A stretch of 64,000 nucleotides of DNA, taken from assembly GCF_011045215.1 (NCBI RefSeq), contig NZ_CP049201.1. One strand, given 5' to 3'. A program made the translations under genes and the position numbers. Position 1 is the stretch's first letter. Each line of letters opens with the position of its first letter. The DNA is from Escherichia coli. GTDB taxonomy: Bacteria > Pseudomonadota > Gammaproteobacteria > Enterobacterales > Enterobacteriaceae. The notes beneath the pieces are model-generated. The model had not been told where the DNA came from. It worked only from the letters and a program-made list of their open reading frames with translations, and did no database searches. Below are positions 2,732-15,142 of the stretch, one piece after another.

Positions 2732-3229
2732 ATGAACCCAATAACACTACAAATCATCAGCAATGCTATTGTTCTGCTTGGCGTTTTGGTTGCCATTGGA
2801 ACCATTATCTACAATGTGCGTACCGCAAAAAAAACTCAAACGGCCAACTTTCTTTTTGAGAGTCGGCAAGATATGCAATATATAGAGTCATTGCATACCC
2901 TGAAACAAGTGCATCGTTCAGGCAAATCATTTCGTTCTTATGTTTTTCCTTGTGATGGTTGTACAATAACAGATGAGGAAATGGCCGAGCGTCGAAAATT
3001 TCAATATATTTTAAATTTTTACGAGCGAGTTGCTGTAAGTATTCGTGAAGGTATTTATGATGAAAAAATGATAAAAAGAACATCTTACACAACAGTTGTA
3101 GAGACATATGATATTGCCGAGCCATTAATTAAAGCAATCAGAGAAAGCATTAATTCGGATACTACATATCAAGAATTCGAATGGTTAGTAAGAAGATGGA
3201 AAGCTAATCCTTTACGGAAAAACAAATAA
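2732..3229 (+). CDS. Hypothetical single-pass membrane protein (165 aa), first gene of a low-GC cargo cassette; candidate defence/exclusion component
   Basis: ORF with an N-terminal hydrophobic helix (ITLQIISNAIVLLGVLVAIGTIIY) followed by a charged soluble domain. GC content is visibly lower than the flanking phage genes. No motif recognised. Confidence 0.7.
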   Translation: MNPITLQIISNAIVLLGVLVAIGTIIYNVRTAKKTQTANFLFESRQDMQYIESLHTLKQVHRSGKSFRSYVFPCDGCTITDEEMAERRKFQYILNFYERVAVSIREGIYDEKMIKRTSYTTVVETYDIAEPLIKAIRESINSDTTYQEFEWLVRRWKANPLRKNK

Positions 3230-3268: not shown

Positions 3269-4111
3269 GTGACACAGAATCCGTTTTCATTTTATGACTT
3301 TTTGGGCTATCTAATTCCAGGTGGGTTATTCCTGTTTATCCTTTTTTTGTTTTCTATTGAAATTAACCCTGTTTATATAGAAGGTATTCTTAACCACATC
3401 CTGAAATATAAAGAAATAATAAGTGTATTTATATATGTGGTATTAATTGTTCTATCATATATTTCAGGTCACTTCATATCTATTCTATCATCCTGTTTAA
3501 TTGAAAAATACATGAACAGTAAACTTGGGTATCCTTCAATTTATCTGTTTTCTAAAAGAAGCTCCCTGAAAATAAAACGACATAATACTAAGTTCAGTAT
3601 AGTTCATTTTATCCGTGGAGTTTTTTTACTTCCTGTATCAGCTTTTGATAAAGCAGAACATCATAAAACCACTCTGCATTCTATACTTATTAAAGTCTTT
3701 TGGCCGCAAATACGAGATGGTTATATAAATGTTTTTTCTGTATCTACGCTATATCGACGTAAGGGCTTGAGGGGCGATCTTTTTCGCCTTGCTTATCATT
3801 ATGTGTATGAACATTCTAAAAATCATCAGGTGAAAATGCAAAACTATGTTGCTTTGTATGGTTTTTGTAGAAACATTACATTTGTTTTTCTCGCTTCAGT
3901 CTGGTTGCTTATATGCCTGTTCCCTCTATCCTTTTTAATAGATATAAATATCAGGTTGTTACCTTTTTGTTTTCTTCTCTTGTTTTGTATTGCTGCATCC
4001 CGAGTATTTTATTATGGTTTTGTTAAGTATTATCGCCGCTATTCTCTTGAGGTTTTAATGGCATTTGCGGTACTTCAGCACGATAAAAAAACTTCGGCAA
4101 TTCCATCATGA
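3269..4111 (+). CDS. Hypothetical four-pass membrane protein (280 aa), second gene of the low-GC cargo cassette; candidate defence/exclusion component
   Basis: GTG start 6 nt after an AGGGGGA Shine-Dalgarno, 39 bp downstream of the previous gene. Four predicted hydrophobic helices (two N-terminal, two C-terminal) flank a ~110 aa basic central region. Low GC. Confidence 0.7.
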   Translation: MTQNPFSFYDFLGYLIPGGLFLFILFLFSIEINPVYIEGILNHILKYKEIISVFIYVVLIVLSYISGHFISILSSCLIEKYMNSKLGYPSIYLFSKRSSLKIKRHNTKFSIVHFIRGVFLLPVSAFDKAEHHKTTLHSILIKVFWPQIRDGYINVFSVSTLYRRKGLRGDLFRLAYHYVYEHSKNHQVKMQNYVALYGFCRNITFVFLASVWLLICLFPLSFLIDINIRLLPFCFLLLFCIAASRVFYYGFVKYYRRYSLEVLMAFAVLQHDKKTSAIPS

Positions 4112-4121
4112 TTTGAAACAT

Positions 4122-4146
4122 TGGCACCCTGTTAGCAAGGGTGCCA
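4122..4146. terminator. Hairpin between the convergent cassette gene and parR-like gene; possible bidirectional terminator
   Basis: tggcaccc-N9-gggtgcca 8-bp stem. The flanks are T/A-rich but lack a clean U-tract. Confidence 0.4.
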
Positions 4147-4194
4147 GAATGATGTGTTGGTATGTATTTTATTAGTTCAAATACAATTGTCAGA

Positions 4195-4509
4195 TTATTC
4201 TGGGAATAAGGTCTGAATATTCTTTTTTATTTTATAAAAATTGCATTCAACTCCGCTAGGCTGATTAGCCTGGTATGTTTCCTTGATGCTAACGGTATTG
4301 AAGGGGAGGTTGTCCTCTGGCCATTCGGCCATCCAGTAGGCAAATGCTGGGTTGCGCTTTATGAGTGCTAGCCCAGCCAGAAAGGCCGCGCGTTGCGCGC
4401 GGCTGCGTTCGGAGGCTGGCAGGCTATCGAGGTAATTGCACGCCTCCTGTTCACTCTTGACGGCGGCGGGCTTCAGATAGAAACTTATCCGTCTGGTTGG
4501 TGTCGTCAT
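4195..4509 (-). CDS. parR: ParR-like partition adaptor / centromere-binding protein
   Basis: 104 aa ORF directly downstream of the parM-like gene. The segment ISFYLKPAAVKSEQEACNYLDSLPASERSRAQRAAFLAGLALIKRNP resembles the plasmid R1 ParR N-terminal ribbon-helix-helix region, as recalled from memory. Confidence 0.7.
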   Translation of the reverse strand: MTTPTRRISFYLKPAAVKSEQEACNYLDSLPASERSRAQRAAFLAGLALIKRNPAFAYWMAEWPEDNLPFNTVSIKETYQANQPSGVECNFYKIKKNIQTLFPE

Positions 4510-4513
4510 TGGT

Positions 4514-5473
4514 TTACTCCTTGTTCATTGCGTACAGTCCATTAACCAGAGCAAACTGTGGCACCCCGTCCGCGATGAAAGTCGCATTAACTCCGCAGGC
4601 TTCGCGGATAGCGGGTGCCACAATCTCCGCCCCGCCACCGACAACCATCACCCGCCCGTAACCCGAAAAAACCGCCAGCGCGCGGATCACGCGTTGTTTC
4701 AGTGTTTCTTCCTTTTCACGAATAACCGCCATCAGGCTGGCGTAATGCGCGTCATTGTGGATGTGCTGGCGCAGCCAGGCTTCATCATGGCGATGTTCGA
4801 TAATGGTATTGGCGATGTGGTGACTGGTGCGCATACCGTTAGTGGCCATCACCGACAGTACGGCATCGGCCATCAGAGAAACGCCTACGTGTGGATCGCA
4901 AAACACCTGGCTGATACCTGCCAGTTGCCCCTGGACCTTTGCCACATCCAGCGTGGTTCCGCCCAAATCCACAATCAGCAGGGATTCAAACGGACTCATG
5001 TCAGCCAGTGCCTTAAAGCCAGCCGGAATGGATTCAGGCATAACCCGTACGTTACGGATAGTGAATGCTTCGCCGTTCTGGTACTCCACCGGGCGCATGA
5101 CGTTCGCTTTTTTGCGGTTGATGTTGGCCATGTCCGGCTGTGCGTTTGTGTCGAAATATTCGCTCAGTGGCAGGGTGACAACCACATCCACTTCCTGTGG
5201 TGTGATGCCTGATTTGACCAGCGCGTGATGAATGGCAATGACATTCACATCGCTGTACTGGTATTGCGTGTCGGTCGTCTGGACAAAGCGATCGCTGACC
5301 GGATCAAAACCATAGCGCACGCCATCAACCATGTAGTTCGCGGGCTGCGTGCCACCGAACGGCGCAGACCATTCCGACTTGAAGCTGTTCGGGCTGATGG
5401 CGTTGCGGCGTTCGCCGTTCTCAGTCCATGCCAGCTTGATGTTGGTGGAGCCGTCATCGATACAAATTTTCAT
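4514..5473 (-). CDS. parM: ParM/StbA-like actin-type segregation ATPase
   Basis: 319 aa. The N-terminus MKICIDDGSTNIKLAW and motifs LIVDLGGTTLD and VMVVGGGAEI resemble R1 ParM (actin-fold phosphate and adenosine motifs). An AAGGAAAAG Shine-Dalgarno lies upstream. Confidence 0.85.
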   Translation of the reverse strand: MKICIDDGSTNIKLAWTENGERRNAISPNSFKSEWSAPFGGTQPANYMVDGVRYGFDPVSDRFVQTTDTQYQYSDVNVIAIHHALVKSGITPQEVDVVVTLPLSEYFDTNAQPDMANINRKKANVMRPVEYQNGEAFTIRNVRVMPESIPAGFKALADMSPFESLLIVDLGGTTLDVAKVQGQLAGISQVFCDPHVGVSLMADAVLSVMATNGMRTSHHIANTIIEHRHDEAWLRQHIHNDAHYASLMAVIREKEETLKQRVIRALAVFSGYGRVMVVGGGAEIVAPAIREACGVNATFIADGVPQFALVNGLYAMNKE

Positions 5474-5507
5474 GTCGCTTTTCCTTATGTTGATTAATTA
5501 ATCGTTT

Positions 5508-5613
5508 GCGGGATTCTGAAATCCCGTTTTTGCCTGTTTTATGCGCGCTTCATATATCGCGGCGCGTTTTTTGCTCATTTACGGGATTTGTGAATCCCGT
5601 TTCTGTCTGTTTT
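5508..5613. repeat. Two ~33-bp direct repeats, each containing a gggatt-N5-aatccc inverted repeat, upstream of parM; candidate parC-like centromere/promoter or plus-strand terminator hairpins
   Basis: Repeat 1 at 5508-5540 (gcgggattctgaaatcccgtttttgcctgtttt) and repeat 2 at 5581-5613 (acgggatttgtgaatcccgtttctgtctgtttt). Repeat 2 overlaps the 3' end of the gpA-like gene. Confidence 0.5.
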
Positions 5614-8373
5614 TTTGTTTCCACTGGTCAGGCTACCCTGCAGCAGGTCTGCTTTGCGGCGGGCGCGTTCAGTGGTTTCACTGATTCTCTGTGCGTGCTC
5701 TGCGTCACAAATGGCGCGCAGCATGTCAGAAAGCACGGTAACGGGTGTTTTCATGGTGTTCTGGACCTGCTGAAGTGTGGATGCCAGGCGTGCGGCGGCT
5801 TCGGGGTCTGATGCCCCGAGCTGTGCCAGATAGCTGGCGACCGGGTTATGGCGGATCTCCGTGCTGCTTACGCCGTGATTACGGCTCAGGCGCTGCCAGA
5901 GCTGCGTGATTCGGCTGTCCGGGCGGGTATCCGGTTTACGTACAATTTCAAATCCCTGCGGTGAAATGATGCTGCCGTCAACGTACAGACTGCCGCCCCG
6001 TAACAGGTGCTGCATCTGCTGTTCACCGATATGCAGGCCGAGAGATTCAGCAGACTCCCGCCATTCTTTAGCGAGTAACTCGTGGTTATCAGGCAAAGGC
6101 CGCGGCTGTTTGCGGCTCTGTGTCCAGCTCTGCATTTCATCGCTGCTGTTTTTTGCCTGTTTGTCACGAAGCGAACGCATCAGCGCCCGGCGTTCGTGCC
6201 GTTTCAGTGAGCGCATCCATTCATTCACTTCAACGCCGTCAGGAAGCTGCGGCCACGGTGCTGGCCGTTCTTCCGACTGTTCTGTCCCGCTGTTGCCTGT
6301 TTCCTGTACACGGGGACAGTTATTGCCACGAGTCCAAGGGGCGGCAGGGCCGCCCTGAAGGTCAAAACCATTTTCGCGGGCGCTGTCTTCCGCTTCCGGT
6401 TTACGTCTTACCAGCTTCCAGTTATCCGGATGCGTGCACACACGGGAGGATTCCCCGATGAGTGGTGACCAGATCCCGTAAATCTGTACGCTCTGTTCGC
6501 CGTAATCGTTCAGCTCATCTGCGAGGTCGTAGGCGGTGCGAATCAGGTAGTCTTTACGTGGAACAAGTACGCCACCCTGTTTCTCAATGTAGGTGGCAAA
6601 ACATCCGGCATCAGCGGCAGCAAGAACCGCATCCATTGCGTCATCCTTCAGCCGTTGCGGGCCTTCCGGGTTGCGTGCCATCTGGCTGGCAAGGCGGCGG
6701 AGTTCACGCCACACCTGACGGGAGGGAATGCCAAAGAACTGGAACTGGCGGACCCGGTGAAGGCGCGCCCAGCCGATGGCGCGCTCCACGCTCTCGGCCA
6801 TTGATTTACCTGTTTCGTGGTCAACGCGTGGCTTGCCCGTTTTCGGGTCGATGCCATCCACGGCACGGCTGTCCAGGTTTTTCCCAATGTAGGTGGCGAT
6901 GTAGCTGGTCGGTGTGCCTTTTGAGCCGTCGACGTACTCCGCCTTAAAGCGTGGGGTAATATCATCACCCAGCTCGTGACGATCTTCCTGAATGGCAATA
7001 TCGCGGGTGTGGGACACAATGGTGTCGATTTCTTCCGGATGAGCAAAGACCATCATATGCCAGTGCACGGTGCCGTCATGGTGAGGCTCCACCGTGCGGA
7101 TGCCATACCAGCGCAGGCCGTCGCGGTTCAGTTTCTTGCGGACCGCCGCAAAAAACGTGTTAACCAGGTAATCGCTGGAGTCGCGCATGGTGGCCCCGTT
7201 CCATTTGGGATTCGGATGACCGTTCTCCGTTGTTGCGTGGTATTTTGACGGGCAGGTGACAGTCAGAAACACCGCTCTGTCGCCACGGGCTTCGGCCAGA
7301 AGTTCCAGCCCCTTCATGGTGGCCATCATTTCTGCCTTACGGTGAACCGGGTTACTTACTCCCGCGTAATACACTGTCTCGAGATCAATCGTGAACCCGT
7401 CTTCATTTTCCAGCATGAAACTTTTCAGGAAATCGCGTGTTTTCTCGCGCTGTGCGCGAAACTCGCTTAACGCGTCCTGGCTCAGATATGGTGATGTTTT
7501 TCTGGAAACCAGACAGGCGGCGCGGAGTTGTTCTTCTCTCCACTCGCAACGTAACAGCCACAGTTTGCGTTTCCACCATTCCGCACAGGTCAGGCGAAGG
7601 ATTGCGCCCGGCAGCAGCTCCGTGTCCGGTTCGTTCCTCCGGTCTTTGTCTGTCGTCAGTGCGTCATAATGTGGAGGCATGGCGTGCAGGTGTAACGCCA
7701 TGCGGGCCAGCATCTGATACGCCTTCAGCGTTACATCCATGGTCAGTTCACCATCAGTCGCGCCAAAGCCATCGCAGAGTTTTTCGAAGGTGCTGCTGAA
7801 CATCGCCGCCGTCATGGTGGCCAGCGTCTGTATCTGGTGTTTGTTGAGCTGCGGCAGGTAAAGCAAATCGTCCAGGCGTTCGCGTCCGGCAAGGGAGCGA
7901 TAACCCGGTGTCAGCCAGCGTCCGTCAGTGCGATCCAGACGTTCGAATATTTTGCGCAGGGTTCCGCGTGCATAGCGTTCCGCCTGCCAGCTCTTTTTGC
8001 CTTTCCTGCGATCGGCTTCCTGTTTTTTGCGCAGGAAGGAGAGGTGGCGAATAAGCGGATCGCGCAGATAGGACGGCAGCAGGCGCAGCGAGGCCATGGC
8101 TTCATCCACCGCGCCGCGTGCCTGTTTTCTGGCGTCTCCTGCCAGTGTGATGGTTTTGTCCTGTTTTTCCTGTGCGTCCAGGCTTTTATTAATCAGGTTG
8201 CCCAGCGGCGTGGCGGAGAACGCCGCATCAGCCATTTCCTGGCGGCGCTCGTTCTCTGCCCGGTAGGCATCCAGCCAGGAGGAAAGCGCGGATTCAGGAG
8301 CGGGGATCCCCGTTCCTTCACGCCCCACTGCGTGGCGCGGTTGTTGCCAGTCCCTGATGTACTCTGCCGTCAT
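5575..8373 (-). CDS. Phage replication initiation protein, P2 gpA family (HUH rolling-circle endonuclease)
   Basis: 932 aa ORF containing a TVHWHMMVF motif of the HUH type. Its position after the early-operon genes matches gene A of P2/186. Confidence 0.85.
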   Translation of the reverse strand: MTAEYIRDWQQPRHAVGREGTGIPAPESALSSWLDAYRAENERRQEMADAAFSATPLGNLINKSLDAQEKQDKTITLAGDARKQARGAVDEAMASLRLLPSYLRDPLIRHLSFLRKKQEADRRKGKKSWQAERYARGTLRKIFERLDRTDGRWLTPGYRSLAGRERLDDLLYLPQLNKHQIQTLATMTAAMFSSTFEKLCDGFGATDGELTMDVTLKAYQMLARMALHLHAMPPHYDALTTDKDRRNEPDTELLPGAILRLTCAEWWKRKLWLLRCEWREEQLRAACLVSRKTSPYLSQDALSEFRAQREKTRDFLKSFMLENEDGFTIDLETVYYAGVSNPVHRKAEMMATMKGLELLAEARGDRAVFLTVTCPSKYHATTENGHPNPKWNGATMRDSSDYLVNTFFAAVRKKLNRDGLRWYGIRTVEPHHDGTVHWHMMVFAHPEEIDTIVSHTRDIAIQEDRHELGDDITPRFKAEYVDGSKGTPTSYIATYIGKNLDSRAVDGIDPKTGKPRVDHETGKSMAESVERAIGWARLHRVRQFQFFGIPSRQVWRELRRLASQMARNPEGPQRLKDDAMDAVLAAADAGCFATYIEKQGGVLVPRKDYLIRTAYDLADELNDYGEQSVQIYGIWSPLIGESSRVCTHPDNWKLVRRKPEAEDSARENGFDLQGGPAAPWTRGNNCPRVQETGNSGTEQSEERPAPWPQLPDGVEVNEWMRSLKRHERRALMRSLRDKQAKNSSDEMQSWTQSRKQPRPLPDNHELLAKEWRESAESLGLHIGEQQMQHLLRGGSLYVDGSIISPQGFEIVRKPDTRPDSRITQLWQRLSRNHGVSSTEIRHNPVASYLAQLGASDPEAAARLASTLQQVQNTMKTPVTVLSDMLRAICDAEHAQRISETTERARRKADLLQGSLTSGNKKTDRNGIHKSRK

Positions 8374-8817: not shown

Positions 8818-9048
8818 TTAATGGAGTTTGTTTTGCTGCTGGATGAGCTGTTGAAGCTCGTGCAGATCATCCGCCAGATAGCTGAAAACAGAGGCGGAAT
8901 AAATGTTTGATAGTGCGTGGCTGCGCTCATGCCGCATATTGATGTGCATGATTTGCGCGACGCGTGATGCGCGGGAAAGTCTGCGGTTGATTTCAGTCTG
9001 GATGTGACGACGCTCCGCGATAGCGCGGTGCTGTTTGCGGTCTGCCAT
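8818..9048 (-). CDS. Hypothetical phage early-operon protein (76 aa)
   Basis: ORF with an AAGAGG Shine-Dalgarno ~8 nt upstream of the ATG. Basic, helical-looking sequence. Confidence 0.45.
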   Translation of the reverse strand: MADRKQHRAIAERRHIQTEINRRLSRASRVAQIMHINMRHERSHALSNIYSASVFSYLADDLHELQQLIQQQNKLH

Positions 9049-9370
9049 GGTGTGGCCTCTTTGCTCGGTGATAGAAATAACTCACCATCCAGAGTTGAGA
9101 ATCTCGGGGTGGCGAGACGTACAGGGTTCTCAACACCGGAGAGCAAAGAATCCGGCCCGACCGAAGTCGGCCCCGTACGCCCCGCCATAATTCTGACGCG
9201 AAAAAGACGTGGCAATACAGTACGCACAAAAAAACCGCTTGCGCGGTTATGCGCTTTGCTCTGTATCGGGTTGAGAATCCCGGCACCCGTTTTATGAGGT
9301 GCAGCGGAAATGTAACCTGACCGATTGAGGCATGGCAAGCGGTTTTTTTGTGTGTGCATGTTCTGGTTTC

Positions 9371-12821: not shown

Positions 12822-13826
12822 ATGTCAATTAAGAAGCTCGAAGATGGTCGTTATTTGCTGGACATCAGGCCGAACGGACGCAAGGGAAAGCGCGTGCGTA
12901 AGGTATTTGACAAAAAATCGGTAGCGGTGGCCACTGAACGCTACATCATGGCGAACGCTGAAAAGCGGGAATATATACAGGGCTACCGTGATCGCCGAAC
13001 GCTAAATGATTTGCTTGAGTTGTGGTGGATGTATCACGGTCAACACAGGCGTAAGGCGGAAGAAGACCGAAAACAACTGCGCAACATAATCAATGAGCTT
13101 GGCGCTGATATGCAGGCTGTGGATCTTGATAAGCTGAAAATTATCGCGTGGCGTTCTCAAAAGATAGCTGATGGATTGAAACCGTCATCTGCTAACAGAT
13201 ACATGAATCGGTTATCCGGAATGTTTACCGTACTGAAGAAAATAGGCCTCTGGGATGCAGAACATCCGGTAAGGGGAATTTCTATTCTTTATGTATCTCC
13301 ACGAGAAATGGCTTTCCTGTCCCAGAAGGAAGTGGCGCTATTGCTCGATACACTGGAGGGCGATTACTGGCGTGTTGCGCTTTTGTGTTTAAGCACGGGG
13401 GCGCGCTGGAGTGAAGCTTGTAAGCTTCGTGGTGAACAGATAGTTCATAACCGTGTAACGTTTCTTGAAACCAAAAATGGCCGAAAGAGAACAGTGCCAA
13501 TTTCGCAGGCAGTTTGTGAGGCGATCAAAACCAGAGAAACAGGCGGCTTGTTTGAGGTGAAGTACCGGGAATTCTGCTTGGCGCTGAAAAGAGTTAAGCC
13601 CGATTTGCCAAAAGGCCAGGCTGCACATGTGCTGCGGCATACGTTCGCCAGCCATTTTGTGATGAACGGAGGAAACATTATTGCGCTTCAGAAGATTCTT
13701 GGCCACGCAACCATTCAGCAAACAATGGCATATGCACATTTTGCACCGGATTACCTGCAGGATGCGGTGGCCCTTAATCCGCTGAAAGGTGGCGTGAGTG
13801 TCCACGCAGTGTCCACGGGGGATTAA
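12822..13826 (+). CDS. int: Tyrosine integrase, P2 Int family
   Basis: The N-terminus MSIKKLEDGRYLLDIRPNGRKGKRVRK and C-terminal HVLRHTFASHF...MAYAHFAPDYLQDAVALNPL (catalytic His/Arg/Tyr region) closely resemble remembered P2 Int. GGAGGG Shine-Dalgarno 7 nt upstream of the ATG; the track TTG at 12807 is an alternative start. Confidence 0.9.
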   Translation: MSIKKLEDGRYLLDIRPNGRKGKRVRKVFDKKSVAVATERYIMANAEKREYIQGYRDRRTLNDLLELWWMYHGQHRRKAEEDRKQLRNIINELGADMQAVDLDKLKIIAWRSQKIADGLKPSSANRYMNRLSGMFTVLKKIGLWDAEHPVRGISILYVSPREMAFLSQKEVALLLDTLEGDYWRVALLCLSTGARWSEACKLRGEQIVHNRVTFLETKNGRKRTVPISQAVCEAIKTRETGGLFEVKYREFCLALKRVKPDLPKGQAAHVLRHTFASHFVMNGGNIIALQKILGHATIQQTMAYAHFAPDYLQDAVALNPLKGGVSVHAVSTGD

Positions 13827-13984: not shown

Positions 13985-15142
13985 TTGTCAGAGACTGAAA
14001 AAGGGTTAAAAATCCTTGTTGATGAAAATATGCCTTATGCCCGCGACTTATTTAGCCGTTTGGGTGAGGTGATCGCGGTTCCCGGGCGTCCAATCCCCGT
14101 CGCTCAACTGGCAGACGCGGATGCGCTGATGGTGCGTTCGGTCACGAAAGTGAATGAATCTTTGCTGGCAGGAAAACCCATTAAATTTGTTGGCACTGCC
14201 ACTGCGGGGACCGACCATGTCGATGAAGCATGGTTGAAGCAGGCGGGAATTGGTTTTTCCGCTGCACCTGGCTGTAATGCGATTGCGGTGGTGGAATATG
14301 TTTTCTCCTCCCTGCTGATGCTTGCCGAACGCGATGGATTTTCACTGCACGAGCGTACCGTGGGGATCGTAGGCGTTGGTAACGTTGGTCGGCGTTTACA
14401 GGCACGACTGGAAGCGTTAGGGATTAAAACCTTACTTTGCGATCCGCCTCGCGCCGACTGTGGGGATGAGGGTGATTTCCGCTCGCTGGATGAGTTAGTC
14501 CAGCGCGCGGATATTCTGACTTTCCATACGCCACTCTTCAAAGACGGGCCGTACAAAACGCTGCATCTGGCGGATGAAAAACTGATCCGTAGCCTGAAGC
14601 CCGGAGCGATTCTGATTAACGCCTGCCGTGGCGCAGTCGTCGATAATACCGCGCTGCTGACCTGCCTGAATGAAGGCCAGAAGTTAAGCGTAGTGCTGGA
14701 TGTCTGGGAAGGCGAACCGGAACTAAATGTGGAATTGCTGACAAAAGTGGATATCGGCACGCCGCATATTGCAGGCTATACCCTGGAAGGTAAAGCACGC
14801 GGTACTACGCAAGTGTTTGAAGCCTATAGCAAGTTTATTGGGCATGAACAGCACGTTGCGCTGGATACATTACTGCCCGCGCCAGAGTTTGGTCGCATTA
14901 CTCTGCATGGACCGCTCGATCAACCGACGCTGAAAAAGCTGGTGCATTTGGTGTATGATGTGCGCCGCGATGACGCACCGTTGCGTAAAGTCGCCGGGAT
15001 ACCGGGTGAGTTCGATAAACTGCGCAAAAACTATCTTGAGCGCCGTGAATGGTCATCTCTGTATGTAATTTGTGATGACGCCAGTGCGGCATCATTGCTG
15101 TGTAAACTGGGTTTTAACGCCGTTCATCATCCGGCACGTTAA
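13985..15142 (+). CDS. pdxB: Erythronate-4-phosphate dehydrogenase
   Basis: The translation matches remembered E. coli PdxB throughout ([21 protein letters not shown]...). Start uncertain: TTG at 13985 with an AGGAG Shine-Dalgarno, or ATG at 14012. The codon preceding Lys-Ile-Leu is TTA, not a start codon. Confidence 0.9.

Follow-up and report, generated by a model that had tools for sequence, protein, structure and literature searches.

The 64,000-nucleotide stretch of Escherichia coli DNA analysed here (the window; NCBI RefSeq assembly GCF_011045215.1, contig NZ_CP049201.1) includes part of a P88-like (Xuanwuvirus) prophage of the P2 family. On its minus strand, directly after the phage replication gene A, this prophage has a cassette of two genes, parM and parR, preceded by a pair of palindromic repeats (Table 1). 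The window sequence is 100% identical to E. coli KSC9 (NZ_CP018323.1), where the prophage is integrated between flk and pdxB, as is evident from its course: it continues via cox, the repressor and the integrase (window 12822-13826) to abut host pdxB at 14030, with flk beside the opposite end. The window opens inside the prophage with a terminase P fragment and the portal gene Q (63-2083, +), followed by the cos-side region.

Table 1. The partition cassette of the P88-like prophage and its neighbouring features, in window coordinates
Feature	Coordinates	Strand	Basis or remark
parM, actin-fold segregation ATPase, 319 aa	4514..5473	-	Pfam, PDB and PHROG matches
parR, adaptor, 104 aa	4195..4509	-	PF10784; 4-nt gap after parM, same strand
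DNA homology breakpoint, parR allele A vs B	~4455		about parR codon 18; allele-B megablast matches end at query position 356
parM leader / ribosome-binding region	5474..5501	-	TTAATCAA...ATAAGGA, kept in E. coli, Plesiomonas and Hafnia; ATAAGGA part also in R1
Proximal 39-nt repeat, candidate parC site 1	5502..5540	-	dyad CGGGATT-CTGA-AATCCCG at 5509-5526; intergenic, the parM ATG being 36 bp downstream
Distal 39-nt repeat, candidate parC site 2	5575..5613	-	dyad at 5582-5599; inside the 3' end of gene A
Gene A, P2-type replication endonuclease, 932 aa	5575..8373	-	PHROG 91 'nicking at origin of replication', E 5e-269
GC-rich hairpin between convergent parR and cargo genes	4121..4146		read from sequence; failed the T-run rule of the terminator scan
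Cargo open reading frames (ORFs)	2732-3229 and 3269-4111	+	P2 GpA-portal hotspot

The product of parM matches Pfam StbA_N (E 1.9e-82) and the ParM C-terminal domain (E 9.8e-69), PHROG 691 'partition protein' (E 1.6e-90) and, over its residues 2-316, the structures of R1 ParM (PDB 1mwk; E 1.9e-92). Its identity to R1 ParM is 46% over the full length, a figure computed from the PDB sequence (the R1-type locus fetched for comparison has a frameshifted parM). The motifs for nucleotide binding and hydrolysis, DDGST (phosphate-1), PES (catalytic), DLGGTT (phosphate-2) and GGGA (adenosine), are all intact, and both the window protein and six phage homologues have them where R1 ParM does. With NCBIfam there were sub-threshold matches only (19 bits against a cutoff of 417 for the ParM model NF010498, and PRTRC_D), the models there covering other ParM lineages.

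On homology and predicted fold the 104-aa protein is an adaptor of the ParR/StbB type. It matches Pfam Plasmid_stab_B (PF10784, E 9.4e-29), BLASTP aligns it with R1-type ParR (E 5e-16, 41% identity over the N-terminal 58 aa), and the top PDB match by sequence is ParR of pB171 (2jd3). An AlphaFold model built on a 10-sequence alignment (predicted local distance difference test, pLDDT, 72.7) has an N-terminal extended segment, helices at residues 18-29, 32-52 and 54-61, a disordered linker and a final helix at 91-101, and when it was submitted to Foldseek the sole significant match was again 2jd3 (probability 1.0, template-modelling score 0.57). The N-terminal part is of the ribbon-helix-helix type with the strand TRRISFYLKP, which is modelled as coil in the monomer. 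The C-terminal helix ends in KKNIQTLFPE; every phage ParR ends in N-[AI]-x-x-L-F-P-x, and the N-[AI]-x-x-L part of this motif aligns with the KKNAMKLIN end of R1 ParR, the ParM-binding peptide of that protein. The sequence-only reading from which this work started had likened the two proteins to R1 ParM and ParR and had placed them inside a P2-like prophage; the alignments and fold matches bear out both likenesses, and the integrase-pdxB junction and the P2-type gene A bear out the placement.

Within P88-like phages, ParM is 95-99% identical while parR is dimorphic or mosaic over codons 19-104 (~4195-4455) together with the downstream cargo. The two main E. coli alleles, A (that of the window, and also of vB_EcoM-569R5 and 705R2) and B (the P88 type), have 53% protein identity; their residues 1-18 are identical, and the same dyads accompany both. 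Because the DNA homology breaks off inside parR, exchange of cassettes in the GpA-portal hotspot seems to use the 5' end of parR as its conserved flank. A third, hybrid form of parR is present in one further locus of the comparison set (L021).

The two repeats upstream of parM are 79% identical over 39 nt, lie 73 bp apart start to start and have identical 7-nt palindrome arms. Two direct repeats of about 33 bp, each with an internal inverted repeat, had earlier been described here; the pair and the palindromes stand, while the length is to be corrected to 39 nt and the distal copy lies in gene A, only the proximal one being intergenic. The dyad CGGGATT-N4-AATCCCG, with its 14 specified bases, has exactly two occurrences in the 64-kb window, and a complete 34-kb relative genome contains it at these two sites only, even when one mismatch is allowed; as about 2e-4 exact matches are estimated to be expected by chance, the pair is far from a chance occurrence. 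The GGGATTTCAGAATCCC core of the proximal repeat is invariant in eight P88-like genomes and in one variant whose ParM is 93% identical. More divergent E. coli variants added nothing on the dyads, P0003 being nearly identical upstream and the P0018 contig beginning inside parM. Each dyad can fold on either strand into a hairpin of -9 to -11 kcal/mol. An Rfam scan of 4000-5900 gave no match, with E values of up to 1 allowed. The dyads were also considered as binding sites of Cox, C or Ogr; they are not known to resemble the sites of these proteins, and the dyad is absent elsewhere in the phage.

Comparable repeats are found at more distant relatives of the locus. In Plesiomonas there are two 26-nt repeats, GCGGGACAAC...CCC, 72 bp apart, the distal one again in the end of A, and in Hafnia a single CGGGTTCATTAAATCCC stands at the position of the proximal repeat. 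Serratia and Enterobacter have different upstream repeats, with inverted GGGAAC..ATAGAAAAAT arms. The class of repeat tracks the beta-strand of the cognate ParR: TRRISFYLKP goes with the CGGG...CCC dyads, NRKISFYLKP with the ATAGAAAAAT inverted repeats, and RRTIAFKLNP with the A/C-rich iterons of R1.

ParMs 54-62% identical to that of the window occupy the same place in P2-like prophages of these four genera (Plesiomonas, Hafnia, Serratia and Enterobacter), where the order is gpA, ParM, a PF10784 ParR and variable cargo, followed by ogr or by portal and terminase. Plasmid ParMs are at most 53% identical, prophages within large plasmid records aside, and the homologues checked at ~48-52% identity are in plasmids or in integrative and conjugative elements (ICEs). 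In neighbour-joining trees, which are rough, the ParMs from P2 contexts cluster apart from those of plasmids and ICEs; the E. coli/Plesiomonas/Hafnia and the Serratia/Enterobacter subclades each have bootstrap support of 200/200, and their union 120/200. Among P88-like phages the ratio of nonsynonymous to synonymous polymorphism (pN/pS) of parM is 0.02-0.13, indicative of strong purifying selection. From the fixed position across genera, the grouping of P2-context ParMs and this selection it follows that the cassette is an old, selected module of the phage backbone and not a recent passenger.

By megablast the segment was found in 14 phage records, all of them P88-like (Xuanwuvirus where classified), and a tblastn search with ParM of 50,697 phage records matched, beyond these 14, only the P1-like phage-plasmid D6 (47.8%). 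Canonical P2 and 186-type phages are thus without this ParM, in agreement with what had been supposed for P2. In E. coli the segment is common, being present in 1,303 of 5,426 complete genomes (24%). Of its 1,442 copies in those genomes, 1,440 are chromosomal and two are on plasmids, so that over 99.8% are chromosomal, and a second probe placed 2,034 of 2,036 occurrences in chromosomes of complete E. coli genomes. The only phage-sized circular record found is pZ1323PEC0009-2, a 34,461-bp 'plasmid' that is a complete P88-like genome, the other plasmid matches being to records of 227 kb to 1.4 Mb. A phage 99.9% identical to pZ1323PEC0009-2 is chromosomal in a sister isolate, and the two together imply that an episomal form exists at least transiently. 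In Plesiomonas shigelloides (GCA_009183595.1) the 32,167-bp contig WEKF01000002.1 ends 141 bp beyond the integrase stop, at about the expected place of attP, which suggests a phage-only contig, whether from an excised or episomal form or from an assembly break at att. No intact attP junction was found at a coverage of at least 80% in complete E. coli genomes, a test that is blind to circles linearised at attP, as the sole known example is; the tally of parMR on chromosomes and plasmids was used in its place. As a general lifestyle, the earlier suggestion of extrachromosomal persistence is not supported. The KSC9 chromosome has a second copy of the parMR segment, probably in a second P88-like prophage, which would put two identical candidate parC sites on one chromosome.

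The genes for integrase, Cox and repressor are retained in all P88-like members. Annotation of two complete relatives, P88 and pZ1323PEC0009-2, gives the P2-type rolling-circle initiator A as the only replication gene, with no Rep or iteron replicon genes in either. In the window, gene A is directly upstream of parM on the same strand, PGAP labels it 'replication endonuclease, frameshifted', and a terminator scan predicted no sense-strand terminator between the two genes. Near the 3' end of gene A there is a run of seven A residues (A7, window 5606-5613) where most relatives have six (A6), and as a consequence gene A stops at 5575 here and at 5550 in most relatives. The A7 is possibly a sequencing error, keeping in mind that the KSC9 assembly is rich in frameshifted genes, yet the isolated phage Chuche also has A7. 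The P88-type phages further have, beside ogr, a gene for a toxin of the Hok/Gef family (KSC9 NZ_CP018323.1 4852303-4852419, just outside the window; 34928-35068 in P88; 1291-1431 in the further locus L001), and so have an equivalent of each of the R1 stability loci, parMRC and hok/sok.

Taken together, these features make it somewhat more probable than the contrary that the cassette is a working segrosome of type II (ParMRC, R1-type) which acts on transient circles of P88-like phage DNA. ParR dimers would bind the two 18-bp dyads, predicted to be a minimal parC of four half-sites, and the C-terminal helix of ParR would capture ParM-ATP filaments whose growth would push sister phage DNA circles apart. 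The substrate would be the extrachromosomal monomeric circle that gene A replicates after infection or excision, and not a permanent plasmid prophage; the cassette would keep such circles dispersed, and inherited by both daughters, until integration or packaging. The binding of ParR to the dyads, the formation of filaments, the time of expression and the benefit to the phage are what we infer. Pointing to a working segrosome are the A-parM-parR operon layout with its 4-nt gap between parM and parR and no predicted sense terminator after A, the confinement of the dyads to this locus, and the recurrence of the 72-73 bp two-repeat layout in Plesiomonas with a positional homologue in Hafnia. The sharing of residues 1-18 and of the dyads by both parR alleles, the correspondence between repeat class and ParR strand, and the presence of the Hok/Gef gene as the other R1-type stability function point the same way. 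That the circle would be transient is suggested by the nearly universal chromosomal location set beside the one circular 34.4-kb form, and by the precedents of srpMRC and AlpAC described below.

Several points weigh against such a segrosome. Truncated ParM variants are common in databases, their clusters having 649, 555 and 414 members where those of full-length forms have 4,287 and 1,308, which implies that the cassette is dispensable for keeping an integrated prophage. The candidate centromere consists of two dyads whereas R1 has ten iterons, and in some phages the arms of the distal dyad have changed without compensation. The E. coli lineage has no convincing sigma-70 promoter in front of parM (no match of at least 9/12; position-weight score 1.8-3.4); by the same score, a simple and approximate one with hand-set weights, the R1 promoter reaches 11.4, that of the Enterobacter homologue 7.6 and that of the Hafnia homologue, whose -35 lies inside the dyad, 9.4. 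The benefit of segregating circles in a short lytic cycle is not obvious, and a literature search for functional study of parMR in P2-like phages gave annotation-level mentions only. The payoff may be better lytic replication or better inheritance before integration. A broader proposition, that a very common lineage of small integrating temperate phages of Enterobacterales keeps ParM as a cytoskeleton for its own rolling-circle-replicated circles, be it for lytic organisation or for delivering a copy to both daughters before integration or after excision, is to be regarded as tentative, possible rather than probable.

One alternative overlaps with the proposed segrosome and differs from it only in the benefit claimed: parMR, read through from A in the early operon, would serve purely as an organiser of the lytic cycle, positioning or spreading replicating circles for better replication and packaging and contributing neither to inheritance nor to lysogeny. 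P2 replicates as monomeric circles. The cassette immediately follows A in the same orientation and is preceded neither by a predicted sense terminator nor by a strong promoter of its own, which fits such read-through; the precedent is AlpAC, which is induced early and whose mutants have 2-fold less circular phage DNA. The Hafnia and Enterobacter promoters, approximate as their scores are, overlap or adjoin the repeats, more like an R1-type autoregulated unit that could act outside the lytic cycle, and restriction to the lytic cycle is considered unlikely, though a credible account. At the other extreme P88-like phages would be facultative or true phage-plasmids, stably kept at low copy number with ParMRC as their partition system. 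The complete P88-like genome in circular pZ1323PEC0009-2, the seemingly phage-only Plesiomonas contig and the addiction-type Hok/Gef toxin gene are what one would cite for it; a P2-like plasmid prophage, KS14, does exist, but with ParA/RepB, and the same suggestion was published by Pfeifer et al. 2021, who flagged the P88 partition genes and proposed episomal and integrative states (PMC7969092). Yet a stable phage-plasmid lifestyle is not the rule when more than 99.8% of copies are chromosomal and the remaining plasmid records are far from phage size; every member keeps integrase, Cox and repressor, the sole replication function is the lytic rolling-circle initiator A, and the circular record may be merely excised replicating DNA, given its integrated near-twin in the sister isolate. 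This account is accordingly judged improbable.

The repeats themselves admit a different explanation, already raised in the sequence-only reading, by which they are mainly tandem intrinsic terminators on the plus strand that halt antisense transcription from the cargo side before gene A, with ParR binding elsewhere or nowhere. The plus-strand hairpins and their T-runs are real: the folding energies are -10.2 and -10.7 kcal/mol (z -3.05 and -1.94), U-runs follow, and both hairpins pass the terminator scan; antisense terminator-like hairpins are also present upstream of parM in Serratia and Enterobacter. What is kept, though, is the sequence of the repeats (the 7-nt arms, and 79% identity over 39 nt) and not structure alone, there are no compensatory changes among variants, and the Plesiomonas and Hafnia equivalents retain the CGGG...CCC motif with neither the terminator fold nor a U-run. 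No plus-strand promoter aimed at the site was found, and a hairpin 1.4 kb away already separates the convergent genes. Termination is thus possible in E. coli and is not conserved in Plesiomonas and Hafnia; it would not be exclusive of a centromere role, and as the main function of the repeats it has little probability. That the cassette has no part in segregation at all is very improbable: it would be a selfish or host-directed passenger, directed for instance, through partition incompatibility, at plasmids or phages that share its parC, or a decaying relic. Its place at the edge of the known GpA-portal defence and cargo hotspot of P2-like phages, the swapping of the 3' part of parR along with the cargo and the frequency of truncated parM would be in keeping with this, while PADLOC gives no match for ParM or ParR, the position beside A is fixed across genera as cargo beyond parR varies, purifying selection is strong, and the dyad is nowhere else in the window or the phage.

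The partition cassette of P88-like phages is already known as an observation, and its role as a hypothesis. Beyond the proposal of Pfeifer et al., RefSeq labels the genes 'plasmid segregation protein ParM' and 'plasmid partitioning/stability family protein' or 'partition protein', in P88 as in every RefSeq genome with the cassette, and the gene appears among the putative fitness factors in the phiSM paper. What is added here is the fixed position across genera, the phage-specific ParM clade, the strong purifying selection and the nearly total chromosomal location, and in addition the two-dyad candidate parC with its relation to the ParR strand and the swap of parR alleles at the edge of the hotspot. 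Partition systems are usually taken as the mark of a plasmid, and here an R1-type ParMRC is a conserved and selected module of integrating phages, present in ~24% of complete E. coli genomes; as a practical warning, a ParM plus a Rep-like gene is insufficient to call a phage-plasmid. Should the cassette act on a transient circle, it would extend to the best-studied bacterial host the idea developed for srpMRC in ICEs and AlpAC in CGP3, and integrated elements would be seen to manage actively a short extrachromosomal phase. Should the cytoskeletal proposition hold, P2-family phages could be called 'part-time plasmids' and would offer a tractable E. coli system in which to study the use of cytomotive filaments by phages. 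The cassette is intact in the isolated or inducible phages P88, phiSM and Chuche, and P88 and phiSM, which are inducible or actively released, are available for experiments.

Other features of the prophage deserve mention. One protein of the plus-strand cargo pair is a DUF4760 protein (PHROG 2284); the other, of 280 aa and hydrophobic-looking by eye, belongs to PHROG 12528 and has a weak PADLOC match to Csx27 (E 6e-6). The pair may be an uncharacterised defence or exclusion system. The GC-rich hairpin that separates these genes from parR is likely the end of the parMR transcript; in the Enterobacter homologue a clear intrinsic terminator immediately follows parR. In the early region, just upstream of a small ORF of the 'derepression protein' type (8818-9048, -), there are Rfam matches at gathering level to C4 antisense RNA (RF01695, 78.5 bits, 9105-9192, -) and to isrK (RF01394, 63.1 bits, 9228-9302, -), and this region looks like an antisense-RNA immunity or antirepressor module in the style of P1, P7 and P4 inside a P2-like phage. 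The host part of the window has a match to nuoG RNA (RF01748, 51654-51696, +), an ordinary host element.

Among the closest systems known are those of the phages themselves. P88 and other Xuanwuvirus members of the Peduoviridae (phiSM, 520873, P884B11 and Chuche) have the same cassette at the same position with the same dyads and ParMs 95-99% identical; relative to P88 the window differs in having parR allele A, 53% identical to the P88 allele beyond residue 18, and A7 and not A6 near the end of gene A. Outside phages the paradigm of type II loci, ParMRC of R1 and R100 (the parA or stbAB locus), shares with the window the order repeats-parM-parR, the ATAAGGA leader, and proteins alike at 46% for ParM and 41% for the ribbon-helix-helix region of ParR. 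R1 parC, however, has ten 11-bp A/C-rich iterons flanking a strong promoter (11.4), where the window has a pair of 18-bp palindromic dyads at a spacing of 73 bp and lacks a strong promoter, and unlike R1 and R100 the cassette of the window is in an integrating P2-like phage with its distal site overlapping the end of a replication gene.

In the SXT/R391 ICEs, srpMRC is a type II locus that stabilises the circle formed on excision, the replication of which depends on a rolling-circle-type nickase/relaxase (PMC4489591). It too is a partition locus in a normally chromosomal element, and its centromere srpC, which precedes the motor gene, has no more than four short repeats, direct or inverted, so that a centromere of few repeats has precedent. 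The differences are that homology to ParR is not detectable in SrpR and that SrpM is only a distant relative of ParM, while the window proteins are clearly of the R1 family, and that the host element is a phage in one case and an ICE in the other. In the Corynebacterium glutamicum prophage CGP3 the AlpAC/alpS system comprises an actin-like filament protein and an adaptor, transcribed together with it, whose binding site lies in front of the operon; induction is early, and the circular CGP3 phage DNA depends on the system for efficient replication (PMC4446434, PMC5539076). Its actin-like protein is of another family, its host is Gram-positive, and CGP3 is a large defective prophage. Among phages maintained as plasmids, the P1-like D6 has a StbA-type ParM 47.8% identical to that of the window, and KS14 combines a P2-like virion module with plasmid maintenance by ParA/RepB. 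Both are kept as plasmids with plasmid replication genes, in contrast to the P88-like phages, which keep integrase, Cox and repressor and are chromosomal in more than 99.8% of cases.

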